Virus record (IMG/VR): IMGVR_UViG_3300005764_000021
Span: 1 to 56,052 of that record
Source: a virus
Taxonomy: Duplodnaviria; Caudoviricetes
Length of the DNA stretch: 56,052 nucleotides
Strand: one strand, 5' to 3'
The notes beneath the pieces are model-generated. The model was not told the origin of the DNA and searched no databases. It saw only the letters and a program-made list of their open reading frames with translations. Below, one piece after another: positions 37,443 to 55,364 of this stretch. Each line of letters begins with the position of its first letter. Position 1 is the stretch's first letter. The position numbers were made by a program, and so were the translations under genes.

Positions 37443-38114
37443 CTAAGCCCACAGCCTCATGTAATTGATCAGCAGCGCATCGACCGCTTGCATCGACGGC
37501 GACTTGCCAGCCATCCGCAGCAAGACTGCGTTGGGATCGAAGTACGTAACTCGGGCCTCTCTGTGGGAAATTTGGCGAATGCCCGCCACTTGCGCCGTGA
37601 CCAGGCGCATCTTGTATTCCATAATCAGAATCGCGCACGCCTGCTTGAGCGGCATCAGCTCCATGGACGAATCGCTCGGCAGATTGAAGCCGCCGGTATA
37701 GGTCACGATCACCGACTGCGGCCACGCCGAGCAGGTCGCATCATTGGGCGCGACGTAGGAAAGCTTGCCCGAGCGCTCATCAATCTCCCAGCCTAGCGCT
37801 TGAACGGCGCTGCCTTCCGAGACGGCGCTACCAGCGGCGACAACGGTTTCGACATCTGCTGCCTTCACCGGCCAATGTCTGAGCGCGAGCCGCCCGTTGA
37901 ATACGTCGCGCCAGGTCTCCGCCACGCGTTCGCGTCCGAACCTGCGATCACATTTGGTGGAGATGTAAGCCGAATAGGTCGAGATCAGCATCGAGACCAG
38001 CGCGTCCTGCGTCGTATCGGCCGGATTGATGCCGAGCAGCAGCTTGGCTTCGGCCAGCGTCATCAGATCGAAGCTCGGTGCTTCCGTCAGAATCTGTTCC
38101 GTGACATCGGCCAT
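37443..38114 (-). CDS. head-tail connector (HK97 gp6-like)
   Basis: LMTLAEAKLLLGI...D...CDRRF; VTYTGGF...LKQAC. Confidence 0.85.
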   Translation of the reverse strand: MADVTEQILTEAPSFDLMTLAEAKLLLGINPADTTQDALVSMLISTYSAYISTKCDRRFGRERVAETWRDVFNGRLALRHWPVKAADVETVVAAGSAVSEGSAVQALGWEIDERSGKLSYVAPNDATCSAWPQSVIVTYTGGFNLPSDSSMELMPLKQACAILIMEYKMRLVTAQVAGIRQISHREARVTYFDPNAVLLRMAGKSPSMQAVDALLINYMRLWA

Positions 38115-39529
38115 CAGTTCGTTTCTTCGTTGAACTGCTGGAACAGGCTGCGCAGTTCGAGCGCGGGCCCGTGCGTGCCGTCGGACATGACCGGAGTTGC
38201 GGTGTAGTGGACGCGGTCGAGCTTCCAGCTCCTCAACGTCGGAGCCGGTGCACCTGGCTTGCCGTCACTACCGGCCGGGCCTGGCGGCCCGCGTTCGCCC
38301 TTGGGACCAGCGATGCCACGCCCGCCCTGGCGGGCAATCATTTTCCAGCCATCGCCCGGCAGTGCTCCCGGATTATCGCGTCGCGCAATGAATGCCGCCC
38401 CGTCGGACACGACAATATCAAGTGCACGATAGTTTTCTTTGGCATCGTAAGTATCGCGGACCGTAGGCGAGACCGCATCTCGTCCGGCGGCAGCGACGCA
38501 AATCCAGTCGAATGTCGCGCCGGGGACCGAACCGGTGTCCTTGAGTGCTTGATAGGTGTTGTTGCCATGGACGACGATCTCGCCTTCATACGTCACATCA
38601 TCTTGCGTCCATCGTTTTACCTTCGGCAGCTTGCCGGGCGCACCCTCGGCACCGCGCGCGCCGGTCTCGCCGCAAGCGCCGTTCACACCAGGCAGCCCGG
38701 GTAACCCTTGCGGACCCGTCGGGCCCGCTTCGCCTTTGTCACCTTTTTCGCCTTGCGGCCCTTTGAGGCCTTGCGCGCCTTCTTGGCCCGGGATGCCGGG
38801 GACTCCTTGTTCTCCGACATCTCCCTTTTCGCCTTTCTCACCGCGCTCACCTTGCTCACCACGCTCACCGACAAAGCCCGGCGGTCCCGGTGGCCCGATT
38901 TCGCCTCGGAGTCCTTGCGGACCTGCGGGACCGGCGTCGCCTTTCTCGCCGGGCATGCCAACGCCATCGGCTCCGCGAATGCCGGGGAATCCGACATCAC
39001 CTTGAGGGCCAATCGGCCCTTGCATTCCTTGCTCGCCGCGTGGGCCGGGCGGGCCCGCTTCACCACGCTCGCCGCGTAGCCCGGACGCACCAACCGCACC
39101 GACCAGGCCGCGCGGGCCTGCAGGACCTTGCGGCCCCGGCAGACCTTGCGGGCCTCGCGGCCCGTCGTCGCCGTCGACGCCGTTAATTCCATCGGCACCG
39201 CGTTCACCGTCACGCCCTGGCGGCCCTACGGATCCACGTTCGCCATCACGCACCAGCGCCAGGCGCTCGGCCACCGCGCGCGCGACCTCGGCGGGCAGAT
39301 TGACGGCCTCGCCGCGCATCTGCACCAAGATCGATTGCGCCCGCGCTTCGATCTGCGCCAGGAATGACTGTACCCGCGCTTCCATCTGCGCGTGCTCGCG
39401 CGTCCAAATCCGCTGCTGCTCGGCGAGCGCCAGCGCTAACGCGTGATCCCAAATTTCAGGATAGGTGCCGCCGATTGATTCGGGCGGCGTTGTCGAAGAG
39501 CCGTTGTGCTGCGCGTCTGACATCGTCAT
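38114..39529 (-). CDS. collagen-like head/neck fibre protein
   Basis: ~200 aa of Gly-X-Y repeats followed by two small aromatic repeats (YEGEIVVHGNNTYQA; YRALDIVVSDGAAFIA). Confidence 0.85.
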   Translation of the reverse strand: MTMSDAQHNGSSTTPPESIGGTYPEIWDHALALALAEQQRIWTREHAQMEARVQSFLAQIEARAQSILVQMRGEAVNLPAEVARAVAERLALVRDGERGSVGPPGRDGERGADGINGVDGDDGPRGPQGLPGPQGPAGPRGLVGAVGASGLRGERGEAGPPGPRGEQGMQGPIGPQGDVGFPGIRGADGVGMPGEKGDAGPAGPQGLRGEIGPPGPPGFVGERGEQGERGEKGEKGDVGEQGVPGIPGQEGAQGLKGPQGEKGDKGEAGPTGPQGLPGLPGVNGACGETGARGAEGAPGKLPKVKRWTQDDVTYEGEIVVHGNNTYQALKDTGSVPGATFDWICVAAAGRDAVSPTVRDTYDAKENYRALDIVVSDGAAFIARRDNPGALPGDGWKMIARQGGRGIAGPKGERGPPGPAGSDGKPGAPAPTLRSWKLDRVHYTATPVMSDGTHGPALELRSLFQQFNEETN

Positions 39530-40889
39530 CTAGTGCTTTCGGAGTTGGTGGCAGCGTTGCTGCCGGAATTCCCGGCGCTGGTGGTCCCGCCGGTGGCCCA
39601 GCCGGATGTTGTCCCGGCAACGCAGGCATTTTGGCCGCGAATGACAATGGAATTTGTTGCTGTTGCATACGTGGCTCGCTGCCTGCGATCACATCATCAA
39701 GACCTTCTTTGTTGCGTGCTTCGTTAGGCGAGAGAATTCCGCCGGTCACCGCTTCCTTGAGTCCACGGATGCGATCCTTGAAATCTGATCGCAGCAGCGC
39801 AGCGGTGTCGAATTCGATGAACTCGTCCGGTTGGCCCTTCAGACCGAGCAGCCGTTCAAAAGCTTGTTCGCAATGATTGAGACAAAAACCGAGTCCAGTG
39901 GCCAGCCAGAACGTCATAAGCGCTTCGGTCGAACCAGCACTGCCGCCGAGCCCGAGCACCGCGAGCGGTATGCGGAACACCAGCGCGATATGCCCTTCTG
40001 CGACTTTCATGATTTCCGCAATCTGTGCATCACGCGGCGGCGATGCCCACGGATTGACTTTGAGCCCATGTGTGAGGATGGGGGTCTTTCCCTGATTGAT
40101 CCCGCGTGACTGCTCGTCCCATCTGTCGCGCAGCGCCGTCACCGTCGCCAGATCGAGCTGCAGGTCGGTCGAGATCACCGCCGAGGGCCGCGCCTGGTTC
40201 TGATAGAACTGCTGCTGCTGCGAATTGATGGAATCGCTCAAAACGATGTCGCTCATGGCCGCGAGCAGCGGCGATTGTCCCCACAACGGGAACGGATTTT
40301 GGCGGCTGCGGTCGGCATGCAAGCGGATGTGCAAGACATCGCGTTGCGGCACCAGGAGCGGTTCTGCGTTAGTCTCGCGCTCGATCACGCTATTGCCGAA
40401 GAGCCGATAAAAAACTTCACCGTTGACAGCGAGCTGCGGCGCGCACAGCCGCGAGTCCATCAGGTGCAGCTCCGAGACCTCGAAGCGAGAGTTGCGCAGC
40501 GCGAGCGCATAAGCATTGCCGTCCAAATATAATTGTCGGACGGCGTTGAGCATAAAGTCCGACGCGGTCTGATACGCGTTCGGCTTGCGCAGGATCCGCG
40601 AGGCTGCGCTGTTGGTGACGCGAGTATTGCCGCCCTTGTCGTTGAGCCGCCACTGATCGCCTTGGCACATGGCGACGGTCTGCGCGTATGCGCTGACACA
40701 CGCTTCGACCATCGCCGAGCGTGCGGGCGATGGAATGACGTTATAACCGAGCTGCCAAAAATTCGTCGGCGAGCCATCGGGCAACCAACCACCCGAAAGT
40801 GGCAGATAATATGGGCCGCTGCGATATCCTCCCTCGACGGCTTTTGCCGCCCAGCGCAGTCCGCCAGCTACAAGCGAGCGCGCTCCCAT
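39456..40889 (-). CDS. portal protein, HK97 family
   Basis: KPNAYQTASDF, LDGNAY, VLHIR, GQSPL, FRIP, LSPNEARNKEGL. Confidence 0.95.
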   Translation of the reverse strand: MGARSLVAGGLRWAAKAVEGGYRSGPYYLPLSGGWLPDGSPTNFWQLGYNVIPSPARSAMVEACVSAYAQTVAMCQGDQWRLNDKGGNTRVTNSAASRILRKPNAYQTASDFMLNAVRQLYLDGNAYALALRNSRFEVSELHLMDSRLCAPQLAVNGEVFYRLFGNSVIERETNAEPLLVPQRDVLHIRLHADRSRQNPFPLWGQSPLLAAMSDIVLSDSINSQQQQFYQNQARPSAVISTDLQLDLATVTALRDRWDEQSRGINQGKTPILTHGLKVNPWASPPRDAQIAEIMKVAEGHIALVFRIPLAVLGLGGSAGSTEALMTFWLATGLGFCLNHCEQAFERLLGLKGQPDEFIEFDTAALLRSDFKDRIRGLKEAVTGGILSPNEARNKEGLDDVIAGSEPRMQQQQIPLSFAAKMPALPGQHPAGPPAGPPAPGIPAATLPPTPKALDDDVRRAAQRLFDNAARINRRHLS

Positions 40890-41450: not shown

Positions 41451-43853
41451 TTAGGACCAGGTTACGTTCTGGGTCCACGCAACCGTGCCCGCGCGCCGTT
41501 GAATCCAATTCAAAGGCATCACCATCCTTAAGGCGATACTATCTGTTTGGAATAGCGACCTTTGGGGAGCTGCGACCGTGCTTGGAGACGCCACCAATTC
41601 AAGTGGGGTCGTATCTTCCATGTGGAGAGTCGCCTGGTCCGAAGTTTCTAGCCTCGGAGCCCCGCCGCCAACTACGACAAAGTCCGCGGCGTCGACGAGG
41701 ATCATTGTCTTCGCTGGCACCGTTGCCGAGTCGATTACCGGCACCGTATTGAGTGTTCCGCCGCGAATCTCCTCGCGGAACGGGAAGATGCCGGTGTTGG
41801 TCGCCTGCGTCAACGTCACTGCGAGGATGTCCGACGGGTTCATCAGGAACACCGGCGAACGCAGATTGCCGTAGGTACTCACCGTGAGCGCACCGATGAG
41901 CGCCTTGATGTCGCCGATCAAGGCCGCCATGCCGCCGCCCGCCGTCGCCGTTGTCACGGTGACGCCGTTGAGCAGCCCGGCGGGCCGAACCGCCGTCGCC
42001 GCGTTCGCGTCGATCAGCACGCTGTCGACTGCAACGCTGGTGTCTTGCTGGATCGCCTCGCGAATCAATCCCTCGATTGCAGGGATGGAATGATCCGCCA
42101 TCTCACGGGTCCACACGCTGATGACCGCGAGTTTCTTTGGCACGACCGTCTGCGAGGTGAACGCACCTTGCCGCACGGGAATCGCGAGACCTTCGCCGAC
42201 GAACGAGCCTGCGATGGTTGGCGTGCGTGAGCGGGTCGGAATGATGATGCGTCCGGTGTTACCGAAGTTCAGCGTCATTCCTTTTGCTGAGAGTCGCGTG
42301 AGGATCGCGGCGGGCATTAAAAGCGGCATCAGATCGGCGTAATCTGTCTGCACCAGCTCCTGGGCCCAGCCCGCGACTGTCGTGATCGCGGGTGCCGAGG
42401 CCGCACGCAGAATCAGCTCGCACGAGATTTTGGTCTCGTCGTCGCCGTACTGCGGACGTTGCTCCGCGATCTTGAGCCGGGTCTCCTCCAGCGATTTACC
42501 CCACTGCTTGGCGAAGTGTGCGACCGCGCCAGCCCGCACGAGGTAATCGACGTAATCGACCTGATCACGGCGACTCTTCTTGGCCGTTGCGAAGATCGGA
42601 GCGGCTTTCGCGGGCTCCGGCGGCGGCGGCGGCGTGAACACGGTCATCGCGCGGCTCGCCGCGTGCCCGTTGCCGCCATTCACAGACTTGGCCAACAGCC
42701 GCTCCGACTCCGTCAACGCATTGAGCTGCTTCTCGAGCCCGGCGATGGTGGTGTTGAGGTCTGTGGCCTTCTGCATCTGGTCATCGCTGATGTTGGTTTG
42801 ATCAACCGACTCCCAGTGCTCTTCGAGTGCGTCCTTGTTCTCGTTCAGGAGAGCTTGGACGGCAGTGATACGTTCGGAAAGCGGCGTCATGACGCGGCTC
42901 CCATTCTTACGAGACGTTTTGGCATGCTTGCCAGTGAGCCCACGCCGCTCGACCTGGTCTCTATTGCCATGCTTGGCGAAAACCAGGTCCATTGTCGCAG
43001 GACTAATGCCCAGCGATTTGGAAACCGCCAGCGCATTTGCGTTAGCCGGGATTGAAACCAGCGAGGTTTCGACCAGCTCGGCTTTAAGGTATTTGCGACC
43101 GCTGAACGGATTCTTCTTGTCCAGCGGTTCGCTTTCGATATCGCGGAAGCCGACCGAGACGGCCTTTAAGATACCTGCCTCGATTAGCTTTCGAATTTCA
43201 TCGATACGGTTTGAGGTGCCCTCCGGTGCCATTATCAGCTTGCCGCGCAAAGCCCCTTTATCGACCTTTAATCCATCCCATCTGCCGATCGGAAACGAAG
43301 GATTATGATTAAACAATGCGACCGGATTTTTCCTGAACGAGGCGATATCCCAGCCATCGGCCTTGATGATGTCACCCATCCGGTCGATGCTTTCATCCGA
43401 TAGCACGAAGTCCATTCCTTGCACGGTCTCGGCGTGAGTTTTTTGAATAACGCGATGCATGCCGGACGCTCGTTCCTGCGAATCCTCCCATGCCATGCGG
43501 CACAGGTTCTCGGCGCGGTCGGGGTCATCTTCCATACCCCATTCGTCGGCGAGTTCGTCAGTGCATCGGTCCATGAAATCGCTCTCGGATTCGCCCTCTT
43601 CGGGGTCCGGCACGTCGCGATCAACTTGATCGTCATCTTGCTTTGCCGTCACGCGTGGCGCGCTCGCGCCGAGGTCGGCATCGGCGCTCTTCGGTGCGGA
43701 GCCGCCGTGGGCTTCGCGCCAGGCGTTGAAGCACATCGCGACGGCTTGCTCTTGTGTGCGATCTTCCGGCGCGCCTGTGCCGTAGGCCTCGTGCATGCAG
43801 CGAGCCATGAACGCGTCTTGCTTTTCGTCCTTGCGTGGTTTGGGTAACGGCAT
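41451..43853 (-). CDS. prohead protease-major capsid protein fusion (HK97 fold)
   Basis: DRMGD...LFNHN...PIGRW...VSVGF...ETSLVSIPAN protease motifs; coiled-coil scaffold; FVGEG...PKKLA...SLFQTD capsid motifs. Confidence 0.95.
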   Translation of the reverse strand: MPLPKPRKDEKQDAFMARCMHEAYGTGAPEDRTQEQAVAMCFNAWREAHGGSAPKSADADLGASAPRVTAKQDDDQVDRDVPDPEEGESESDFMDRCTDELADEWGMEDDPDRAENLCRMAWEDSQERASGMHRVIQKTHAETVQGMDFVLSDESIDRMGDIIKADGWDIASFRKNPVALFNHNPSFPIGRWDGLKVDKGALRGKLIMAPEGTSNRIDEIRKLIEAGILKAVSVGFRDIESEPLDKKNPFSGRKYLKAELVETSLVSIPANANALAVSKSLGISPATMDLVFAKHGNRDQVERRGLTGKHAKTSRKNGSRVMTPLSERITAVQALLNENKDALEEHWESVDQTNISDDQMQKATDLNTTIAGLEKQLNALTESERLLAKSVNGGNGHAASRAMTVFTPPPPPEPAKAAPIFATAKKSRRDQVDYVDYLVRAGAVAHFAKQWGKSLEETRLKIAEQRPQYGDDETKISCELILRAASAPAITTVAGWAQELVQTDYADLMPLLMPAAILTRLSAKGMTLNFGNTGRIIIPTRSRTPTIAGSFVGEGLAIPVRQGAFTSQTVVPKKLAVISVWTREMADHSIPAIEGLIREAIQQDTSVAVDSVLIDANAATAVRPAGLLNGVTVTTATAGGGMAALIGDIKALIGALTVSTYGNLRSPVFLMNPSDILAVTLTQATNTGIFPFREEIRGGTLNTVPVIDSATVPAKTMILVDAADFVVVGGGAPRLETSDQATLHMEDTTPLELVASPSTVAAPQRSLFQTDSIALRMVMPLNWIQRRAGTVAWTQNVTWS

Positions 43854-44083: not shown

Positions 44084-46076
44084 GCTCGGCCTCGTATTTC
44101 GCCATCGACTTCTCGTAGTCGGTCGCCACATCCTTGGAGCGACCGCCCATGTATTTGTACAGCACCTTCTCCGGGTTCCACCAGGTGGCCTGCGCCGCCG
44201 CTGGTTCTAGCTTGATGCCCTGCGCCGCCAGCTTGCCGAGCGCCATGTTGAACACGCGAGTGATGTATTCGCGTTGTTCGGCCCCGCGCGGAGCCTCGAC
44301 CATCTTGCCGCCGTAGCTGTCGACGAAGCGCTCGGCGGCATAGACCAGCTCGCTCTTGCTGCGCGCGCCGGATTTGTATTCGGCCTGATGCTCGGCGTAG
44401 TTTTTCTCGTGCTCGTCGTAGACCTCGTTGGCGATCTTGTTGAGCGCTTCCATGCTAGCCGGTGCTCGACGGCCTTCCTCTTTGAGCGCGTTGCGCAGCC
44501 GGTCGGCGATTGGCTCCATGTCAGGCTGACCGACGCCGGTGTTGGTCATGCGGCCCCAGGCGCGCATGAACCAGATGTCCATCGTCAGCGGCTTAAAGTT
44601 GCCGTTGAGGTTCTGATAGAAGCCGAGACCGATCTTCGGGCCGAGCACGGCCGAGCCGTTGACGACATCGTCCATCGATGTTCTGCCGACCTTGTAGCCG
44701 GTGATCTGCTTCAGCTCGCGCACGGTCATCTCCTTGTTGAAGAATGTGCGCGTGCCGTCGAGACCGAACTTGGCCACAAATTTGTTGAGCTTTTCCATGT
44801 TGCCGTTGATGCCGGAATTCTTGACCTTCATGTCGGTGGGGAATTGTCCCGTCCGGCTGAAATGGCTGTAGGCCTCCTCGGCCAGGCGCACGTTGCTGTC
44901 GACGACTTCGCCCTGACTGGTGACCGCCAGCGCCGCGATGTAGGCGAAGTGCTTGTCCGGGTCGCGCGCGATCTCGGGGTGCATGCGCTCGGCGATCTTC
45001 ATCGCCGCTTTCATCTTGTCCGAGTACCAGGTCGGGGAGCTGTGACCGTTGTTCAGTCCGGCCTTGAGATCGGCAGCGATAGCGTCGGCCAGATAGTTGT
45101 CGGTCTCGGGCGTCGACTCTTCGAGCGAGGATTTGCCGAAGCGCTCTTGCAGCACTTTGCCAGCGCGGTCGTTGAGCTGCTGCGCGACGTCGTGGACGGC
45201 AATCGAGTTCGGCTTGGCCGCCGTCGTGCCGATCATGATGCTGTCGGCGGTGAGCGGGTGGGGCCGCGCTAGCTCTTCGCCCCACCGATTATGAATCCGG
45301 TCCCAGGTTGCTTGACTTCCTTGAACCGGGGATTGGCGGATAATTTGCTCATAAGCTCGTCGCGCGTCGTCGCGCTGCTCGCGGTCGCTGCCGGTGTCTT
45401 GCTGGGTGCCGATGAATTCCGCGCGTCCGTGCGTGTATTCAACGGTGGCTGTCCCGGAGGCTTTGGCAACTGCGTCATGGAGCTTTCCATCGAGGTCTGC
45501 GACGTAGACGGTCGCGCCCTTCTCATGGGGAACCAGGGTGTGGAATGCAAGCCCGTCGGCCAGCAAACCCTCGTGGATTTTTTGGATATCGCCGGGGGCC
45601 TCGAACTTGTAGAGCACCGCCGGGCCCGCAGCTTCGCCGCGAAACAGCAGCACTTGCTTCTGGTCGCCGAGGTGGCCCTTCATGGCCCCGGCCAGGCGTA
45701 GCTGGTCCCAGCTCGCACCCTTGGCGACCGACATTACCGAATTCTCTGCACCGTCCTTCCAGGCCCCGATGATGTCGTGGTCCTCGGCCTGGATCCCGAG
45801 TGTGCGGTCGATCTCGCCCGAGGCCTGCTTGAGCGCGCCCTGCCGCTCGCTGCCGAGCGCCTGGTGCGCGAGGTTCAATCCGAGCGTCGCGGTGTTGGGC
45901 GAGACAAACTCGATGCCCTCCTCGTGTGCTCCCGGCCGCGAGCCCTCGAACCTGCCGGTGGTCGGGTCCTGGATGTAGTCGACGTCGCGCTTCTCGTGCC
46001 ACGCCTTGTCCCCTGCGGGATGCCAGTCGAATTTATCGTCATCGCCCCAATGAAAGCGCTCGGCCCGGAATGTCAT
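44061..46076 (-). CDS. two-domain protein; C-terminal HhH-GPD/DNA-glycosylase-like domain
   Basis: WY...LAVTSQ...N...GPKIG...FYQN...TMDIWFMR...QATWW; N-terminal DPTTGRF leader. Confidence 0.7.
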   Translation of the reverse strand: MTFRAERFHWGDDDKFDWHPAGDKAWHEKRDVDYIQDPTTGRFEGSRPGAHEEGIEFVSPNTATLGLNLAHQALGSERQGALKQASGEIDRTLGIQAEDHDIIGAWKDGAENSVMSVAKGASWDQLRLAGAMKGHLGDQKQVLLFRGEAAGPAVLYKFEAPGDIQKIHEGLLADGLAFHTLVPHEKGATVYVADLDGKLHDAVAKASGTATVEYTHGRAEFIGTQQDTGSDREQRDDARRAYEQIIRQSPVQGSQATWDRIHNRWGEELARPHPLTADSIMIGTTAAKPNSIAVHDVAQQLNDRAGKVLQERFGKSSLEESTPETDNYLADAIAADLKAGLNNGHSSPTWYSDKMKAAMKIAERMHPEIARDPDKHFAYIAALAVTSQGEVVDSNVRLAEEAYSHFSRTGQFPTDMKVKNSGINGNMEKLNKFVAKFGLDGTRTFFNKEMTVRELKQITGYKVGRTSMDDVVNGSAVLGPKIGLGFYQNLNGNFKPLTMDIWFMRAWGRMTNTGVGQPDMEPIADRLRNALKEEGRRAPASMEALNKIANEVYDEHEKNYAEHQAEYKSGARSKSELVYAAERFVDSYGGKMVEAPRGAEQREYITRVFNMALGKLAAQGIKLEPAAAQATWWNPEKVLYKYMGGRSKDVATDYEKSMAKYEAEHAVPQAA

Positions 46077-48952
46077 GCAACCAGCCTTGCAACAAAGCGC
46101 TCCGTGTTGGGCGCTTCGCGCGGTTCATGGCTAACGATCTCTAGCCGGGAGTTGCGCGGAAACAATATCTCCGCTTCCTCGGGGAAATTCGAAAGCGAGC
46201 CAACTGGAAACGCCGGACTGCCTTTCGGTACTTGGATTTCGATGTAGCTCCCCGGCTTATCGATCTTCGACTTGTCGAGCGTCGTGCTCATGAAGGCCGG
46301 ATCACTGAATGAGCCCGCATGATCCAGAATATCCTGCGTCCGCTGCCAGCCCACCGTTCGATAGACCGTCACATCGTGCGGTAGCTTGTGGGCGCTCACC
46401 AGCTCATCAAGATTCTCGGTCTCGGCTGACACGGGACCGGAGCCAAGTCGCGCGGGCGCGTTGAACAGGTCGCTGCTCAGCGTATACATATCGAGCGCCT
46501 GCTTCTGTTCGAGCGGAATATCGCTCACCCCCATTTCATCGCGCAGCGCATCCACCTCGCGGGTCGATGCCGTCACGTTGCGGTCTTCACCGCCAAGCGC
46601 CATCGAGCCCAAGTCATCGCCGCCGTCGCCAGCCGTCCACTTTCCAGCTTCATCGCGCGGTTGGTCGGGATCGAACTTTGCGTACCAACTTTTTTTCTTC
46701 GGAGTCTTTTTTTTGAGCGGCGTCACACCGTCAATGGTCTGACCAAGCCACGGATTGGCACGATCCATGTCGAAGAGCCGACTGATCAAGGCCAACGTCG
46801 ATTTGCTGTTTGGCTTGTCGTCGAGTGCCTTGGCTGCCTCTGCTTGCGTCCGCTGCTCCTCCAAAAACATGTTCGCCTGCCGCAACGCGAACTGCCCCTC
46901 GCCGACGGCAACGCCGACACGACCGATTGCGCCGTCGCGCATGTCACCGACGGCGTAAACACCGGGAAGCGGTGTCTCCAGGTTTTTATTGGTTTGGATT
47001 CTGCCGCCCTTGGCGACCGTCACATCCGCAGGGACCCACTTAGTGTCCGGCATGCTGCCGATGAATTCGCCCAGCGCTTTGATCTGCAAAACTTTACCGC
47101 CGACGGTTTCCATGCTTACTGGATTGCCGCGCGCGTCACGATTGAGTTGCTTGATGCTGTCGCTTTCAATCACCGTGATCTTTGGATTGTTGCGCAACGC
47201 CTCAACCTGATAATCGCTCATGCTCTCCACGATGGGTGAGCGCGCCAGCAGGTAGACATGATCGCAGTGCTGCGCACATCCGAGTGCCGCTTGAGCTGCG
47301 CCATTCGAGCCGCCAATCACGCAGACCCTGCCGCCTGCGCCTGCCTTCGCCAACGCCTTGCCATCTCCGATAATCACGCCCGGTCCCTCTGAGCCGGGGA
47401 AGCTCATGCGGCGAAATTCAACACCACCGGCCAAAATGACCGTGCGACTGTCGATATGCTCACCATTGGACAGCGTGAGATGCTTCAGTCCGGTCTTTGG
47501 ATCATAGGTCATCCCCGTGACCCGGATGCCGAGCTTGGCCTCTGCTCCCAAGCGCTGCGCTTGCTCATACATGTTCTGAGTCAACCGTTCGCCGGTTACT
47601 CCAACCGGGAAGCCAGGGAAGTTCTCAATGCGAGAAGAAAACTTGGCTTGCCCGCCAGCGACCGCAGTGGCCTCGACGACCAGCGTATCGAGGCCTTCCG
47701 CTGCGCCATTGATGCTGGCGGCCAATCCACCGGGGCCAGCGCCGATAATGGTCACATCGCGCGGACCACCCGGTAAACCAATTCCACCGGGCCCACCGGG
47801 ATCGGCGTGCAGACCGTGCATCTCCTTAACGATAGCTTCCAACTGATCTACCAGTGCCTGCGACTCGGGGCCGTCTGGCTTGTCCACATGCGCCAGCAAT
47901 TGGTTGTTGATCTTTGCCCACTCGCTCTTGAGCGCTTTGAATTTCTCAACATCGCCCGGCACCAAACCATAATTGCCAGCCTCGCCGCCGCCAGCGCCGC
48001 CGTCGCTGGCGAACTGCCCACCTTCCGGCGATCCAGCAGGTTCGCGCGGATGCTGCGACTCGTCCCACGCGCGCAACAGCTCCAGCAGCATCTTGCCGAA
48101 CGCGGTTTCGCTCGCGGGCTTCTTGCCCTTGCCGCCGGTGAAGATTTCGGCTTCTTCGAGCAGCTTGGTGATCGAGATGTTAACTCTAGCGATCTTGATC
48201 TTGGTGTCGTTGGTCAAGTTGCCGTCGGCGGCATCGAGCCCGAGCTTGCCCGCCCAGTGATGGTGACCGTCGAGGATGTAGTCGTCCTTGGAAATGATCA
48301 GCCGCTTGGCACCCTGGTTGTCGGGCTCTTTCTCCAGGTGGGCCATCACTGCCGCGACCTTGGCACCGTTCAACTCGTTCTGGGTCGCGCGCAGGTTGGC
48401 GGCAAATTCCCTTTCCTTTTTGATTTCGTAACCCTTCCGCTCCAAGTATTTGCGGAACTCTTTGGTCTGCTCATCAGTCAGTTGCGGCATCTGCGCGCGC
48501 GGGATGCCTTTGGTCTCGGCGCAGAACAGGTTGGTGCCCGCCACGCTCACATCGCAGAGATTGAACACCGGCGCTTGCTGTCCTTGCTTCTGCCAGCGCT
48601 GGGCTTCCTCACCCAGCTTCTTGATCAGCGTCGAGACTTGTTTCGGCTGCGTCAGCTCGACCTTGCGGCCTTCGTACAGTGCGCGCTGCGCGTCAGCGAC
48701 CTTCGAGGTGTGGATGACGCCGTGCGCATCGACATAGGCGTCCTTGCTGTAGCCCTCGCCGGGATGCTCGCGCTCAGCATCTCCTCCACCGCCGCCGCCA
48801 TCACTCGTGAACTGTCCGCCTTCCGAGGATCCTGCGGGTTCGCGCGGGTGAGCCGATTCGTCCCAGGCGCGCAGCAGCAGCTCGAAGCTCGGCAGCGGTG
48901 CCGAGAGATCGCGCCAGACCTCGGCGGTCATATCCGCAAATAAGCCAGCCAC
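46073..48952 (-). CDS. polyvalent protein: ParB/Srx-like + thioredoxin-reductase-like flavoprotein + ADP-ribosyltransferase
   Basis: ISKDDYILDGHHHWA; IIGAGPGG...GGQA...IENFPGFP...GVYAVGD; VYR...FMSTT...EAEILFPR (R-S-E triad). Confidence 0.85.
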   Translation of the reverse strand: MAGLFADMTAEVWRDLSAPLPSFELLLRAWDESAHPREPAGSSEGGQFTSDGGGGGGDAEREHPGEGYSKDAYVDAHGVIHTSKVADAQRALYEGRKVELTQPKQVSTLIKKLGEEAQRWQKQGQQAPVFNLCDVSVAGTNLFCAETKGIPRAQMPQLTDEQTKEFRKYLERKGYEIKKEREFAANLRATQNELNGAKVAAVMAHLEKEPDNQGAKRLIISKDDYILDGHHHWAGKLGLDAADGNLTNDTKIKIARVNISITKLLEEAEIFTGGKGKKPASETAFGKMLLELLRAWDESQHPREPAGSPEGGQFASDGGAGGGEAGNYGLVPGDVEKFKALKSEWAKINNQLLAHVDKPDGPESQALVDQLEAIVKEMHGLHADPGGPGGIGLPGGPRDVTIIGAGPGGLAASINGAAEGLDTLVVEATAVAGGQAKFSSRIENFPGFPVGVTGERLTQNMYEQAQRLGAEAKLGIRVTGMTYDPKTGLKHLTLSNGEHIDSRTVILAGGVEFRRMSFPGSEGPGVIIGDGKALAKAGAGGRVCVIGGSNGAAQAALGCAQHCDHVYLLARSPIVESMSDYQVEALRNNPKITVIESDSIKQLNRDARGNPVSMETVGGKVLQIKALGEFIGSMPDTKWVPADVTVAKGGRIQTNKNLETPLPGVYAVGDMRDGAIGRVGVAVGEGQFALRQANMFLEEQRTQAEAAKALDDKPNSKSTLALISRLFDMDRANPWLGQTIDGVTPLKKKTPKKKSWYAKFDPDQPRDEAGKWTAGDGGDDLGSMALGGEDRNVTASTREVDALRDEMGVSDIPLEQKQALDMYTLSSDLFNAPARLGSGPVSAETENLDELVSAHKLPHDVTVYRTVGWQRTQDILDHAGSFSDPAFMSTTLDKSKIDKPGSYIEIQVPKGSPAFPVGSLSNFPEEAEILFPRNSRLEIVSHEPREAPNTERFVARLVA

Positions 48953-49500
48953 GAATCCTCAATCGCGGTGATGGGCCAACCCTGACTGCTTAACCGGTCG
49001 AGTACTTCCGAGACTTGGACCGCCGGGTTGTTGTAATCGTGCCAGACGATGACACCACCCGGACGGATAAGCGCACGGGATAGAAAGCTGTCGTGTTCAA
49101 CAGCCGCCCGCGAATGATCGCCATCAATGAAGCAGCAATCGCAGGGTTCGACGTCTTGTGGCCCCACGGCGAGCGAGCCGCGTTCGCGGACAAGAAGCCA
49201 GAATCGTGGATCAGGAGCGGCGTAGACACCGGCCGTTCGAGGGACTTCGCTGCGCTGACAAGCGAGGGTTGGCTCATGGCCGGGCGGGATATCGATGCCG
49301 ATATATCTTTCGATTCCCGGTATCTCTCTCAAGATTATCGACGCGGTGCGACCTTCATTCACACCAAATTCGATCACCACCTTCGGCCGGACGCTGCGCA
49401 CCAATGTGACCAGCAGTCCGGTTTCGACGTCGTTGAGATACAAATTGTGAAACGGCCGGATGCGCGCGACTTCGATGCTATCGCGAGGAACCGTCAGCAC
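48928..49500 (-). CDS. class I SAM-dependent methyltransferase (Methyltransf_24-like)
   Basis: VIEFGVNEGRT, FIDGDHS, GGVIVWHDY. Confidence 0.9.
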   Translation of the reverse strand: MLTVPRDSIEVARIRPFHNLYLNDVETGLLVTLVRSVRPKVVIEFGVNEGRTASIILREIPGIERYIGIDIPPGHEPTLACQRSEVPRTAGVYAAPDPRFWLLVRERGSLAVGPQDVEPCDCCFIDGDHSRAAVEHDSFLSRALIRPGGVIVWHDYNNPAVQVSEVLDRLSSQGWPITAIEDSWLAYLRI

Positions 49501-49681: not shown

Positions 49682-50908
49682 TCACGGGGACACTTGAGCT
49701 AGCGCGCTCGCCCAATCGCCGGGCGATGTCTGTTTGCACAGCGTGACATTCTCGTACCACTTCTTGCGCCAGCGCCATGAGTGCCAGTGCGAGAGCAAGA
49801 GCTTGACGTTGGGATGTCCGATTGCGCCCGCCAGGTGCACGGCCGCCGTGTCCACCGATATGATCTCGTCCAAGCACAACATTAGTGCGGCGCAGTCGCC
49901 GAAGTTCTCGAACCCGAACGTGCGGGTGCGTCCCGTTCGAGCGCTCGGACGTGGCAACTGCGCCTGCACGCTGTAAATCTCGGCCTCGGGATCGAGATGT
50001 GCGAGCAGCTCCTCGACGTCGATCTCGCGCGGATAGTCGCCGATGCTCGGCTTGCCGATGCTCCACGCGATGCCGATGCGCTTGCGCGAGCTCGAGCTCG
50101 AGCCCAGCCGCTCGCGCCATTCGGCAACGCGCTCGGGATCGACGTCGAGATAGGGACCTGACAAGCACGCATCGGGCGAGACGTACAAGCGGCCGAGGAG
50201 ATGCAGCAGCGGACAGAAATAATCGACGGGCTCGCCGGACGGCATGTAGTCGTCGAGCAGCCCGTCCAGCTCGCGCGGCAGATCGAGCGACACGATTGCG
50301 CCCATGGCTTCGAGCATCGGGACGTAACGCAGGCACATGATGCTGTCGCCAAAGCCGTGCGCGTGCAGCAGCAGGATGCGCTTGCCGTTGATGTTCTCGC
50401 CGCGCCAGGGCCGCATGCCCGCATCGAGCGCAGCGCGGACCTGTGGCCTCATGAATGGCGCGAAGTCCTCGCACTTCTCGTACTGCTCGAAGCCCGTGCG
50501 CCAATCCCCCGCCGCCAGCAGCAGCATCGCGCGATTGAAGCGCGCGCGCAGCGTCGGCGCGATGGCTATGGCTGCATTCGCGGCCTGCAGCGCGGCCTCG
50601 ATCTGGTTCTCGCGGTAGAGCGCGACGACGCGGTTGAACTGCAAAAGGTAGTCGTCGATGTCGATTGATGGATCGTTGGTCAGCTTGCGCTGACCAATCG
50701 CTTTGCCGTTGAGCGCGACGATGATATTGCCCTCGGGCAGCGTGGCCTTGTGGCCGTTCTTGCTGCGGACCTCCAATATTTCGCCGTCCAGCGTCAGCCC
50801 GCGCCAACCATAGTCGGTGGTTTCGTGCCTGATCACCGGATCGAGCTGCGGCGGCTCGCCGAAGTCCGCGAAGATGGTCTGAGGCCGATCTGTTCGTGAT
50901 TCATTCAT
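49682..50908 (-). CDS. TPR-containing glycosyltransferase (GT-B, family 9-like)
   Basis: TPR-like helices; WRGE...HGFGDSIMCLRY; IGIAWS; LDEIISVDTAAVHLAGAIG; WRW...WY. Confidence 0.85.
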   Translation of the reverse strand: MNESRTDRPQTIFADFGEPPQLDPVIRHETTDYGWRGLTLDGEILEVRSKNGHKATLPEGNIIVALNGKAIGQRKLTNDPSIDIDDYLLQFNRVVALYRENQIEAALQAANAAIAIAPTLRARFNRAMLLLAAGDWRTGFEQYEKCEDFAPFMRPQVRAALDAGMRPWRGENINGKRILLLHAHGFGDSIMCLRYVPMLEAMGAIVSLDLPRELDGLLDDYMPSGEPVDYFCPLLHLLGRLYVSPDACLSGPYLDVDPERVAEWRERLGSSSSSRKRIGIAWSIGKPSIGDYPREIDVEELLAHLDPEAEIYSVQAQLPRPSARTGRTRTFGFENFGDCAALMLCLDEIISVDTAAVHLAGAIGHPNVKLLLSHWHSWRWRKKWYENVTLCKQTSPGDWASALAQVSP

Positions 50909-52716: not shown

Positions 52717-53760
52717 TCACCAATTCGTCGTCGTCATCCAGCCCACGCCGCTGGCCGAGCGCACGCCCCAGGCCACCGGCAGTTTGACCATGATGCCGAT
52801 ACAGTCAGTCTGCCAGATCGATTTCGTGGGCGGGCTGCCGTCCGGGGCCGTGTCCATCTGCACCGCAGCCTCGCGGCTGGTCGCCATGATCGTCGGCGTG
52901 TCGCCGAGCACCGAAGCAATATTGTTGGGCGCGACCGCAATCATGATCATCGTGCCGCGCAACGCCAGCGAGCCGAGAAAGCTCAGCGGGCGCACGCCAT
53001 GCTGGCTGCGCAGATCCGCCAACAGCGCGCGGGTCGTACTGCCGATGAAGATCGGCTGCGTCGAACTCACCGGCGCGACCACGCGATGCAAGGTCTCGAT
53101 GTCGGTCATCAGCGCCGCCACCGGATCAGGCGCGGTGCTGGCCGTCGATGCCGCCACGCCATAACGCAAGCCCGCCGGTCGAGCTGCGCTGCCCGCAACA
53201 TCGTCAAACAACGCAGTGTCGAGCGCAAGCGCGGCCGAGCGCACGAGCGCATCCAGCATCAGCGCTTCGATGTTGGAGGACTGCACCATCTCCCGCGTCA
53301 AGATCACGATCACCGCAAGCTTCTTCGGCACCAGCGTGATCAGCGGCTCGACGTGACCCTGCTGGATCGGAATTGAATCGCTTTCCTTGACGAAGAAGGC
53401 ATAGGCCGAATCGCCGAGCAGCGTCGGCACCGAGATTTGCCCGGCATGATCGAAGTTGAGCTGCAGGCCTTCGCGGAATAATTTCGCCGCCGCCGATTGC
53501 GGGGCCAGCGCCGCAAGAAAGTCCGGCATGACCGTCCGCAGCAGCGCCGGTGTCCCCGCCATGTCCGTCGGTGCCGTCGGTGAGCGCAGCAGCCACGGCA
53601 GGCTGGCGTCGTTGCTCCACATCCTGCGCGCCACCTTCTCAGGTGAAGCGCGATCATAAGCGCCGACAGCAGCAGCAACGCACGCACGCGTTAAGCTCAC
53701 CACTGAGGGCCGCTGCGACGGCTGCGATGTCATCGGAATGAGAGCCGGTGCTGTAATCAT
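52717..53760 (-). CDS. major-capsid paralogue 1 (HK97 fold, no protease domain)
   Basis: FVKESDSIP, PKKLAVIVILTREM, RPAGL, SIWQTD...W align with the MCP; ATGA overlap with terL. Confidence 0.85.
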   Translation of the reverse strand: MITAPALIPMTSQPSQRPSVVSLTRACVAAAVGAYDRASPEKVARRMWSNDASLPWLLRSPTAPTDMAGTPALLRTVMPDFLAALAPQSAAAKLFREGLQLNFDHAGQISVPTLLGDSAYAFFVKESDSIPIQQGHVEPLITLVPKKLAVIVILTREMVQSSNIEALMLDALVRSAALALDTALFDDVAGSAARPAGLRYGVAASTASTAPDPVAALMTDIETLHRVVAPVSSTQPIFIGSTTRALLADLRSQHGVRPLSFLGSLALRGTMIMIAVAPNNIASVLGDTPTIMATSREAAVQMDTAPDGSPPTKSIWQTDCIGIMVKLPVAWGVRSASGVGWMTTTNW

Positions 53761-55364
53761 CCAATCAACGCCCTAACATCCACGAGCGGCTCGGCTTTGA
53801 TCAACGCCAGCGAAAAACTCATCGCCAGCGCAACAACGCCGTCAATCCGCCCGCTGCTCTTCGCCTTGTCGAGCTTGCGCCCGCCAGCACTGTCCTTGCT
53901 GATCACTGCGCAGCCCGCGTTCCAGCTCAGCACCGGATGATTGCCGTGGCGGATTCGCTTCTGCACAATCATGCGCTCTAAAACATCTACGGCAGGACTC
54001 ATCTCCTTGTAGCCTTGTCCGTGTTCCGCGAGCACAACGCTGCAACTTATCTCGTTCAGCTCGCGCTTCAGATCGCCGATGCGCCAGCGGTCAAACGCAA
54101 GCGCCTCGATGCGATAGCGCCCGTGCAGCTCCGCGATCTTCCTCGCAATCACAGCAGGGTCAGTCGCGTCGCCGATGGGCGTGATCAGTCCATCACGCAC
54201 CCAAACGTCATACGGCACGCGATCCTCGTTGGTGCGCGCATTAGGATCGCCAGGCAACCAGAACCACGGGTAGACGTGAAAGACCTGCTCGGCGTCCTGG
54301 TGAATTAGAACGAGCGCACTCAGGTCCCGCGTGTAGCCAAGATCGAGCGCCGCATAGCAGCGCGCACCGTCAGGAATGTGCGGCTTGCCACCACACGCCA
54401 TCCACGATGACGGCTCGATGAAACGAGCCTCCGCCGCGACCCGCTGGTTCAGGATCAGATTTCGGAACGCGTTCTCCAACGAGGGCATGCGCTTCGCCTG
54501 GCTCGCCTGCCGCTTCACATCAGCCAAGCTGCGGAAGTCGTCGAGCGCGGGGTTAGCTTTCTTCCAGGTCGAGCGCTTGAACGGATCGTCAGTCAGCGGC
54601 GCAGTGTGCAACGTCAAATGAAAAGTCTCGTCCTTGATCTCGCCTCGCTGCACACGCAAGCCGTAGTCGATCAAAACCGACAGCGGCGCAAAATCATCGG
54701 CCGCCTGCGTGGAGATGACAATCATCAGCGGCTCTTTGCGCGCGCCCATCGCGCTGTCCATCGCATCGTAGAGCTGCCGATCAGGCGCTTGCCCCAGCTC
54801 GTCGAAGATTACCATAGATGGATTGAGGCCCATCTTTGTCTTGGCCTCTCGACTCAGCGCCATGTAGATCGATTCATTTTCGAGGTCGACTATCTCTTTT
54901 CGGTTGAACAAAACATTGCAGCGCGCGTTCAGATACTCGTGCCGCTTCACCAGCGCGCACATCTCGTGAAAAATCTTGGAGGCCTGCGCACGATCATTCG
55001 CACAAGAATAAATCTCGCCGCGTGGCTCCGCTTCGGGCCCGCACAAGTGACACAGCGCAAGCGCCGCCGCGAGCTGCGTCTTGCCGTTCTTGCGCCCTAA
55101 ACTCAAAACCGCCGTCCGCACAGGACGTCGCCCATCCTCAATCGTCCTATAAGTCTCGTCGATAAATCGACGCTGAAACTTGCGTAACTTCAGCTTAGTC
55201 CCCACCAACTCGCCTGAACTGATCGTCAACTCCTCGCAGAAGCGAATGACCCGCTCAGATCGCGTGAGACCTGGCTCATCCCACGAAAATATCGTGGTCT
55301 CATACCTGCGAAGAACAGCCTGCCTGTCCCGCAGTTTGAAAACCTGCCACCCTTCGAGCGCCAC
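53757..55364 (-). CDS. terL: terminase large subunit (HK97-like)
   Basis: Walker A GRKNGKT, Walker B IFDE, ISTQA, KANP, ALDL, FDRW, IDGVVALAM. Confidence 0.97.
   Translation of the reverse strand: MALEGWQVFKLRDRQAVLRRYETTIFSWDEPGLTRSERVIRFCEELTISSGELVGTKLKLRKFQRRFIDETYRTIEDGRRPVRTAVLSLGRKNGKTQLAAALALCHLCGPEAEPRGEIYSCANDRAQASKIFHEMCALVKRHEYLNARCNVLFNRKEIVDLENESIYMALSREAKTKMGLNPSMVIFDELGQAPDRQLYDAMDSAMGARKEPLMIVISTQAADDFAPLSVLIDYGLRVQRGEIKDETFHLTLHTAPLTDDPFKRSTWKKANPALDDFRSLADVKRQASQAKRMPSLENAFRNLILNQRVAAEARFIEPSSWMACGGKPHIPDGARCYAALDLGYTRDLSALVLIHQDAEQVFHVYPWFWLPGDPNARTNEDRVPYDVWVRDGLITPIGDATDPAVIARKIAELHGRYRIEALAFDRWRIGDLKRELNEISCSVVLAEHGQGYKEMSPAVDVLERMIVQKRIRHGNHPVLSWNAGCAVISKDSAGGRKLDKAKSSGRIDGVVALAMSFSLALIKAEPLVDVRALIG

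Follow-up and report, generated by a model that had tools for sequence, protein, structure and literature searches.

What a tailed phage might do with one polypeptide in which three unrelated modules each follow a copy of the same short leader is the question raised by the gene P0001 in the virus record IMGVR_UViG_3300005764_000021 (Duplodnaviria; Caudoviricetes). The record is complete (56,052 bp, with TerL, portal, S78 protease and capsid genes) and was analysed over its whole length, referred to here as the window. A preliminary description, made from the sequence alone, had taken P0001 for an effector polyprotein that is packaged into the head, cut by the prohead protease and injected. On balance, P0001 is probably a head-packaged polyvalent effector assembled from cassettes of a peptide tag and an enzyme, with the S78 prohead protease as the likely agent of their separation at Arg/Ala (in sequence motifs, a slash marks the proposed or predicted cleavage point).

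P0001 can be read as three cassettes, namely tag plus ParB/sulfiredoxin (Srx)-like module, tag plus thioredoxin reductase (TrxR)-like flavoenzyme lacking CxxC, and tag plus ADP-ribosyltransferase (ART), with two further cassette modules in the translationally coupled gene P0122. The three leaders quoted in the preliminary description are present exactly as given and form one family: ELLLRAWDESAHPREPAGSSEGGQFTS (aa 24–50), ELLRAWDESQHPREPAGSPEGGQFAS (aa 291–316) and YAKFDPDQPRDEAGKWT (aa 756–773). Before each module they hold a tag of roughly 16–20 residues with the consensus [WFY]D[EP]xx(H)PRxxxGx[FW], and a Gly-rich linker comes next. Two variants of the tag occur in P0001, a long one (WDESxHPRxPAGSxxGGQF) and a short one (FDPxxPRDxxGKW). 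The regions of tags 1 and 2 share about 78% DNA identity over 105 nt and are nearly identical as protein; judged by these sequences, they are an old duplication under constraint and not a recent one. In an AlphaFold2 (AF2) model, tag 1 forms a small hairpin with a beta-bridge at residues 37–48 and a predicted local distance difference test (pLDDT) score of about 70. No Pfam or NCBIfam model covered the tag in the proteins scanned. Self-cleavage at an Asp-Pro or Asn-Pro bond was considered and set aside, the commoner WDES-x-HPR variant being without that bond.

The anatomy of three modules with a leader before each was recovered by translation of the open reading frame (ORF), by Pfam and in the AF2 model. 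Module 3 matched ADPrib_exo_Tox (PF03496) at aa 815–952 with a Pfam E-value of 7.6e-15, above the cut-off. All three catalytic motifs of the R-S-E ADP-ribosyltransferase that had been proposed were found in order and in register with Vip2, as Arg (VTVYR), S-T-T (FMSTTL) and E-x-E (EEAEILF), and the module also aligned to VsdC, SpvB and Tre1 with the motifs in register. Module 2, described as TrxB-like, retains the flavoprotein fold and has lost the redox-active CxxC of TrxB. It matched Pyr_redox_2 at aa 399–686 (Pfam, E 1e-32), and its best PDB match, the thioredoxin reductase 7aaw (E 3e-32 over 304 residues), has the flavoprotein fold with two dinucleotide-binding domains. The CAVC of 7aaw aligns with GDGKALAK, which holds no Cys; CxxC is also missing in three homologues (P0022, P0074 and P0101), the module and its relatives in other tagged polyproteins reading G[VL]I.GD in its place, and the NCBIfam TrxB model TIGR01292 scored 150.9 bits against a cut-off of 343. 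By these alignments the module is TrxR-like in fold only, and thioredoxin is an unlikely substrate. Module 1 gave no Pfam hit (ParBc included) and no PDB sequence match. Its AF2 model (26 sequences, pLDDT 74) was closest in Foldseek to sulfiredoxin 3cyi (E 0.011, probability 0.97), followed by pNOB8 ParB-N, Noc and ParB (E 0.011–0.3, TM 0.2–0.56), and DGHH is invariant across the 26 sequences. The nearest folds are therefore those named in the preliminary description, with a weak match and no sequence hit, and the label 'ParB/Srx-like' is plausible but not secure as a reading of the model.

The tag was found far beyond this phage. Relatives of the N-terminal module were collected with P0001 aa 1–330 as query (263 found among 7999 scored candidates), and the motif [WFY][DN][EP]xx(H)PRxxxGx[FW] was present in 99 of the 119 relatives among the matches listed; these 119 held 177 tag matches, compared with 7 in 20 shuffles of all of them. 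Viral contigs and species-representative genomes were searched with a degenerate DNA pattern for WDE-x-x-HPRD. From the viral contigs, 103 stretches yielded 155 distinct tagged ORFs with 226 tags (44 ORFs had more than one), and from the genomes 66 stretches yielded 53 tagged ORFs in 49 loci, spanning many phyla (Alphaproteobacteria, Clostridia, Melainabacteria, Planctomycetes and a Woesearchaeote among the lineages). Searched exhaustively by phmmer with the 55-aa leader, 1.84 billion cluster representatives gave 298 hits at E ≤ 0.001, which reach 3849 aa and up to 8 tags; at least one tag was present in 135 and at least two in 109 of the 143 newly listed hits (slightly relaxed regular expression). 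One phmmer hit, P0244 (15 'stretches'), was rejected as a false positive with an unrelated repeat. The giant proteins P0230, P0231 and P0237 (1725–3849 aa) carry 5–8 tags each, and the 3–4 residues before every tag are near-constant within a protein (AAG/ or AAA/ in P0230 and P0231, KGAE/ or KGAD/ in P0237). With a 29-aa leader as tblastn query, too short for sensitivity, cultured phages gave no match at E ≤ 10 and plasmids gave four uninformative matches at E 4–9. The tag did not appear in the accessible portions of the literature searched (motif spellings; capsid-targeting, cargo and polyvalent virion proteins), the supplementary alignments of which might show it.

The tag behaves as one half of a cassette. 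It stands 10–40 residues ahead of a module, whichever module that is, and the domains behind it include ART, ART-PolyVal, Acb1, zeta toxin, GNAT, ATLF-like, NUDIX, InPase, RelA/SpoT, TopoIB, S-adenosylmethionine (SAM) lyase and DUF7178. Partners of the N-terminal module were TrxR-like, ART, Acb1 (directed against the defence system CBASS), ART-PolyVal, DUF7178, ATLF-like, zeta toxin, NUDIX, ChaB plus DUF2213, and DUF7689. In small proteins the tag often occupies residues 2–5. Pfam domains counted in 89 tagged viral-contig ORFs were ART 6, zeta toxin 4, ART-PolyVal, GNAT and ATLF-like 2 each, and InPase, TopoIB, RelA/SpoT, SAM lyase, LPD3 and MuF one each, together with four prohead proteases (two S78, two XkdF-type) and three portals. 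The search for further cargo domains that had been suggested earlier thus found many different enzymes behind the tag, and the leader is, as had been claimed, a portable modular unit in viral and bacterial ORFs alike. In the close relatives L009–L011 single modules are encoded by adjacent, overlapping genes, each of which opens with a short helix and continues with the tag and a Gly-rich linker. The bacterial genomes have Met within four residues before the tag in 31 of 53 tagged ORFs (e.g. MGT-WDESEHPRD), with about 8% expected by chance; 'tag first' is therefore the natural state of many of them.

The neighbouring P0122 shows the same shuffling. Its modules A and B occur in either order in homologues, each with its own canonical tag; the tag is present in 52 of 107 homologues, and fusion to portal C-termini was often seen. 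Where P0122 has the decayed AWHEKRDVDYIQDPTTGRFEGS, its closest homologue reads ESLLQR/WDEGQHPREPAGSS. This spread bears on the reading that P0001 is an ordinary cytoplasmic multidomain enzyme of auxiliary metabolism or host takeover, neither packaged nor processed, with flexible linkers for leaders. A late-operon position is by itself no proof of virion association, as that reading would have it; against it, a linker motif is conserved across phyla and stands at the extreme N-terminus of single-domain proteins, P0001 is translationally coupled between head-module genes, and the family is fused with head-interior proteins as set out below. We regard it as very improbable.

The link to the head interior came from fusions and gene order. 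Among the 120 relatives listed, the N-terminal module is fused ahead of an S78 protease plus capsid protein in 17 and behind a portal in six, and all portal fusions examined have the order portal, tag, cargo. Positions 646–709 of the 'portal protein' profile PHROG 15528, a C-terminal extension, match the tag, which members of PHROG 30637 carry as well. In polyvalent proteins containing MuF, 4–5 tags separate ParB-like, 2H/Acb1-like, ART-like and GNAT modules. Tagged genes of Clostridia prophages lie between TerL and portal and also between portal and MuF; of the 134 genes nearest to tagged ORFs in the 49 genome loci, seven encode portals, three terminases, three MuF proteins, four prohead proteases and two capsid proteins. 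An N-terminal extension of a scaffold-capsid fusion, like a C-terminal extension of a portal, points into the head, and the fusions are the best evidence obtained here for the cassettes as head-interior cargo. Gene neighbourhood and domains likewise bear out the modular effector polyprotein within a phage head module that the preliminary description had proposed. Mass spectrometry has found a polyvalent protein in virions of phi24B, according to a preprint (bioRxiv 10.64898/2026.04.10.717836).

Cleavage was considered through the capsid junctions of the same phage. An S78 protease and an HK97-fold capsid protein with a predicted removable N-terminal scaffold are present in one 800-aa protein, and the junctions cited earlier, ELILR/AASAP in this fusion and IVNR/AASAP and WLLR/SPTAP in two stand-alone capsid paralogues, are all real. 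The paralogues are 32–33% identical to the capsid domain of the fusion, with the junctions aligned; the fusion has helices up to residue 486 and strong conservation from R483/A484 on, and the major capsid protein (MCP) junction hh-R/A[AP][ST]AP (h, hydrophobic) is conserved in relatives. In AF2 the protease and scaffold helices of the fusion were confident and the capsid domain was not (mean pLDDT 56), and a PDB sequence search gave one weak capsid match (8gta, E 3.5e-4). The residues before tag 1, ELLLRA, are identical to the junction ELILRA at five of six positions. Apart from the junction itself, no other hexamer among 40,055 (six-frame ORFs of at least 120 aa, whole window) reaches 5/6, and neither does any of 396 foreign pre-tag contexts, in which the maximum was 4/6 (5 cases). 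Only two [LIVMW][LIVMN]R[AS] sites exist in the 959 aa of P0001, and both abut tags. K or R occupies position -2 in 16 of 16 tags of S78-capsid fusion homologues, compared with 51 of 198 contexts in an unbiased sample. Pre-tag residues agree in 1.17 of four positions within a contig and in 0.45 of four between contigs (e.g. AAG/, KGAE/, LD/, ADAE/ and K/ within contigs or proteins), a likeness expected if a universal tag were joined to a protease site specific to each lineage. A predicted complex of the S78 protease domain (aa 135–310) with the leader (aa 8–62) scored 0.02, was run without controls and was counted neither way. Five fragmentary contigs (22–82% complete) with an 'E/W' pre-tag were screened for proteases: S77 was found in 0/5 (control genomes were also silent), S78 in 0/5 and XkdF-type in 1/5, the fused ORF of this last contig having no tag.

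The same data were weighed for a packaged protein that the prohead protease leaves uncut, in which the tags would be remnants of three fused tag-enzyme genes or internal multivalent docking elements, and the likeness of ELLLR/A to ELILR/A chance or a shared preference at helix ends. Relatives encode the same modules as separate adjacent genes, so that fusion would be easy, and polyvalent proteins of the N4 vRNAP type are packaged without processing (Iyer et al. 2017, PMC5512222, in the passages available). Portal- and MuF-fused cargo, moreover, keeps its tags with no need for targeting. Against an uncut protein stand the uniqueness of the site match in the genome and among foreign contexts, the position of the sole two hh-R/A or hh-R/S sites directly before tags, the basic residue at -2, and the need of capsid- or portal-fused cargo for some release if it is to act in the host. 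We consider an uncut protein rather unlikely.

Several results count against a head-packaged polyprotein cut at its tags. Strict-register matches to ELILRA are only 3/6 at tag 2 and 1/6 at tag 3; the third leader is without ELLxR, with merely Lys at -1, and tags 1 and 2 are one independent coincidence and not two because they are paralogous. The match of leaders to the capsid junction that had been reported for the first two thus held at tag 1 (5/6, unique in the genome) and was only partial at tag 2 in strict register. Beyond the basic residue, P5-P2 co-variation between MCP junction and pre-tag was absent in eight relatives (L010, L019, P0009, P0014, P0032, P0036, P0039 and P0058; 0–1 of 4 matches), as an uncut protein would predict, so that the likeness beyond P1/P1' is seen only in this genome, and the closest relative, P0003, has KRDKD/W and GLERD/W in place of ELLLR/A. 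Paralogy could also explain the within-contig likeness of pre-tag residues. AF2 gave low confidence for the capsid domain (pLDDT <50 after residue 483), and the MCP junction therefore rests on conservation and not on fold. The earlier proposal of cutting by the prohead protease accordingly draws weak support from the site match and from K/R at -2, and none from co-variation in the eight relatives or from tag 3. The tag is kept on cargo already fused to portal, capsid protein or MuF and hence cannot be a packaging signal only; it co-occurs with very different head systems (S78, XkdF-type, DUF2213 and MuF/SPP1-like) and hence cannot be the site for one protease family.

Tagged genes in Gastranaerophilales belong to the same side of the balance. 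They encode GH108 and phage-type lysozymes, an M23 peptidase, a glutamine-deamidase toxin and an SAA-like protein with the tag at residues 2–5, they adjoin housekeeping genes (dcw cluster, MutL, MlaE, BipA and a P-type ATPase), and no phage gene lies within about 4 kb of them. At two conserved chromosomal positions, different cargo stands behind the same tag in different genomes. Because these genes lie among housekeeping genes, the tag does not depend on capsid genes nearby; the tagged proteins are used by a particle or injection system whose genes lie elsewhere, or else the tag addresses something that bacteria have in common. The second option would make the tag not a capsid signal but a short linear motif that addresses an export route or a conserved component of bacteria (for instance in secretion, in localisation or at a host hub), and the polyprotein need not then be in the virion. 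These lysozymes, peptidase and toxin amid housekeeping genes, with cargo swapped at the two positions, fit such a motif, as does a tag that spans many phyla and for which no binding partner was identified. It is opposed by the fusions to portal C-termini, prohead proteases, capsid proteins and MuF, by tagged genes inside head modules, and by the many cargo domains with cytoplasmic targets (Acb1, ART, zeta, RelA/SpoT and SAM lyase), which fit delivery with DNA; the view in Gastranaerophilales, moreover, covers about 4 kb on each side, and a particle or injection system could be encoded elsewhere. We judge this export or localisation motif to be improbable.

For a head-packaged polyprotein cut at its tags, the course of events would be as follows. 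The tag would serve as a portable N-terminal label of proteins travelling inside tailed-phage heads. The polyprotein would be synthesised late, together with the head proteins, and become enclosed in the procapsid, where the S78 prohead protease would cut just before tags 1 and 2 at LLR/A, the same hydrophobic-hydrophobic-Arg/Ala site that separates scaffold and capsid; before tag 3 the cut would probably fall near the preceding Lys. Each enzyme would then be tag-first, as single-module relatives are naturally, and the enzymes would exit together with the DNA, to act in the cell just infected. The anatomy of P0001, the spread of the tag and the shuffling of its cassettes, the fusions to head proteins and the site similarity are what was seen directly, and from them we infer packaging, cleavage, injection and a binding partner of the tag. 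A wider form of this scheme is put forward tentatively, as something possible that we hold more doubtful than probable: the hairpin of the tag would be a hitherto undescribed and nearly universal address label for cargo in tailed-phage heads, a portable cassette mark by which enzymes and toxins are carried in the head and delivered along with the DNA. Protease sites that vary by lineage (here copying the capsid maturation site) would adjoin it, so that polyproteins, and likewise cargo fused to portals or capsid proteins, are split into enzymes that begin with the tag, and bacteria such as Gastranaerophilales would have taken it over for chromosomal antibacterial effectors loaded into a phage-derived particle.

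The head region lies on the minus strand in the order large terminase, capsid paralogue, 139-aa ORF, second capsid paralogue, GT9/TPR-like protein, methyltransferase, P0001, the 671-aa P0122, the 800-aa protease/scaffold/capsid fusion, portal and collagen-repeat protein, and the coordinates are collected in the table. GTG 48952 is the earliest possible start of P0001; the database gene call P0002 has 952 aa, and M8 is the likely start because its ATG at 48931 shares bases with the stop codon TGA of the methyltransferase gene upstream (ATGA). The stop of P0001 overlaps the ATG of P0122 in the same way (ATGA). In cultured phages, tblastn with the whole of P0001 and with aa 1–330 found no close relative, and matches were confined to the TrxR-like domain (~30% identity) and distant ParB-like modules (30–37%).

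Table. Positions of the features discussed (numbering of the window unless a locus is named; aa, residues of the encoded protein)
Feature	Coordinates	Strand	Details
Whole window, complete virus record	56,052 bp		with TerL, portal, S78 protease and capsid genes
Large terminase	53757..55364	-	
Capsid-protein paralogue, 347 aa	52717..53760	-	junction WLLR/SPTAP
Capsid-protein paralogue, 390 aa	51120..52292	-	junction IVNR/AASAP
GT9/TPR-like protein (weak match)	49682..50908	-	inside head module
Methyltransferase (Methyltransf_24, weak match)	48928..49500	-	inside head module, ATGA-coupled to P0001
Polyvalent effector gene P0001	46073..48952	-	959 aa from GTG 48952, stop-free; likely ATG start 48931 (952 aa)
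Pre-tag 1, ELLLR/A	48866..48883	-	aa 24–29; proposed protease site
Tag 1, WDESAHPREPAGSSEGGQFT	48806..48865	-	aa 30–49; then Gly-rich linker
Module 1, ParB/Srx-like fold (plausible) with DGHHHW	48113..48769	-	aa about 62–280; PHROG 2859
Pre-tag 2, ELLR/A	48068..48082	-	aa 291–295
Tag 2, WDESQHPREPAGSPEGGQFA	48008..48067	-	aa 296–315
Module 2, thioredoxin-reductase-like FAD/NAD(P) oxidoreductase without CxxC	46838..47758	-	aa 399–705
Tag 3, short variant, FDPDQPRDEAGKWT	46634..46675	-	aa 760–773; Lys-rich ...KKKSWYAK before it
Module 3, R-S-ExE ADP-ribosyltransferase	46097..46510	-	aa 815–952
P0122, 671 aa	44061..46076	-	modules A (aa 40–270) and B (aa 270–665) behind degenerate tag AWHEKRDVDYIQDPTTGRFEGS
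Prohead protease-scaffold-MCP fusion, 800 aa	41451..43853	-	S78 aa 159–274; Phage_capsid aa 538–736
Predicted maturation junction R483/A484 of the 800-aa fusion	42405/42404	-	
Portal protein	39456..40889	-	Phage_portal, E 1e-61
Tagged loci in Gastranaerophilales	L171:5848-6549; L173:66-818; L187:3111-3866; L137:6580-7305; L142:4169-5437; L148:2337-3413		

This gene order (terminase, capsid paralogues, further genes, protease/capsid, portal) is unusual. Three capsid-protein paralogues occur in one 56-kb phage; the two stand-alone copies lie right after the terminase gene and keep short N-terminal extensions and an R/A or R/S junction, the main copy being fused to protease and scaffold. Residues 1–125 of the 800-aa fusion (43480-43853, minus strand) form two similar Cys-containing helical repeats, DAFMARCMHEAYG...AMCFNAWREAHG and SDFMDRCTDELADEWG...NLCRMAWEDSQ, in which C19, C97, C118 and W122 are invariant in 17 relatives; the relative P0108 has a ChaB domain in their place. 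A collagen triple-helix repeat protein of 471 aa (38114-39529, minus strand; Pfam E 7e-38) is encoded directly after the portal gene.

P0001 belongs to the polyvalent proteins described by Iyer, Burroughs, Anand, de Souza and Aravind (2017, PMC5512222), a multi-effector phage protein with several unrelated effector domains in one polypeptide; delivery with DNA and proteolytic release were predicted for them in the passages available. The repertoires overlap in ART, ART-PolyVal, DdrB-like ParB, MuF, InPase, LPD3 and zincin peptidases. Modules homologous to those of P0001 combine with ART-PolyVal, InPase, LPD3, MPTase-PolyVal and MuF, P0001 itself having only ART and ParB-like modules of this set and no LPD or peptidase domain (Pfam). 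The terms 'HPR' and 'linker' are absent from that paper, and the passages available describe neither a recurrent tag before each module nor a match to a capsid site; the supplement may differ. The wide spread of the tag is new here, and neither the tag nor its use in cassettes nor the way it adjoins a cleavage site of capsid type turned up in the literature searched; polyvalent proteins and capsid-targeting sequences were known already.

In phage T4, the prohead protease gp21 removes the capsid-targeting peptide, and Alt is a packaged, injected ADP-ribosyltransferase. The T4 capsid-targeting sequence is a short conserved N-terminal peptide on diverse anti-defence cargo that directs it into the scaffolding core (PMC3012670, part available). 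A shared N-terminal label on head cargo, as on the T4 internal proteins (IPI-III and Alt), is proposed for P0001, and the likeness is functional only: the tag is unrelated in sequence and is proposed to stay on the cargo, whereas the T4 signal is removed, the cargoes of P0001 follow one another in a single polyprotein, and its phage has an HK97-like head and an S78 protease (no S77, T4 gp21-type, match was found in the head module of the window). Encapsulin cargo-loading peptides, usually C-terminal, are likewise short and conserved and direct diverse enzymes into an HK97-fold shell, but they are unrelated in sequence to the tag, their compartment is DNA-free and nothing is injected. The Dar system of phage P1 (DarB, DdrB and DarA) encloses large anti-restriction proteins in the head, where P0001 is proposed to travel too. 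The N-terminal 30 residues of DarB suffice for loading a reporter into the P1 head (PMC9024508), and DdrB has a ParB-like domain and is processed (PMC5512222), as stated in the parts of these papers at hand. Unlike P0001, the P1 proteins are separate and not cassette polyproteins, and their signal is not known as a conserved motif across phages. MuF polymorphic toxins (Jamet et al. 2017, PMC5576092, in the text available) resemble the tagged family in carrying variable toxin domains on a head-morphogenesis domain and in being encoded near portal and terminase; unlike them, P0001 and P0122 have no MuF domain (PF04233/PF06152), which occurs in tagged relatives only, and 'HPR', 'linker', 'conserved motif' and 'cleav' are absent from that text. 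In HK97, gp5 is cut at K103/S104 by the gp4 S78 protease (PMC10275583, part available). The present phage likewise has a protease of the S78 family, a capsid protein with a fused scaffold and a basic P1 residue at the predicted junction, and differs in having protease, scaffold and capsid in one 800-aa polypeptide, two extra capsid paralogues and cargo with look-alike sites.

Proteins that enter with phage DNA act before any phage gene expression and are therefore prime counter-defence weapons; apart from T4, P1, N4 and a few giant phages, they have been found by virion proteomics only. If the reading given here is true, the tag makes virion-delivered effectors (Acb1 against CBASS, ADP-ribosyltransferases, zeta toxins, SAM lyase, RelA/SpoT and lysozymes) predictable from genomes, and one short peptide could load foreign proteins into the heads of many phages. 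The match between pre-tag and capsid maturation site in this phage gives a concrete, falsifiable prediction of the cleavage points, and the tag would yield a rule, open to testing, for the construction and cleavage of polyvalent proteins.

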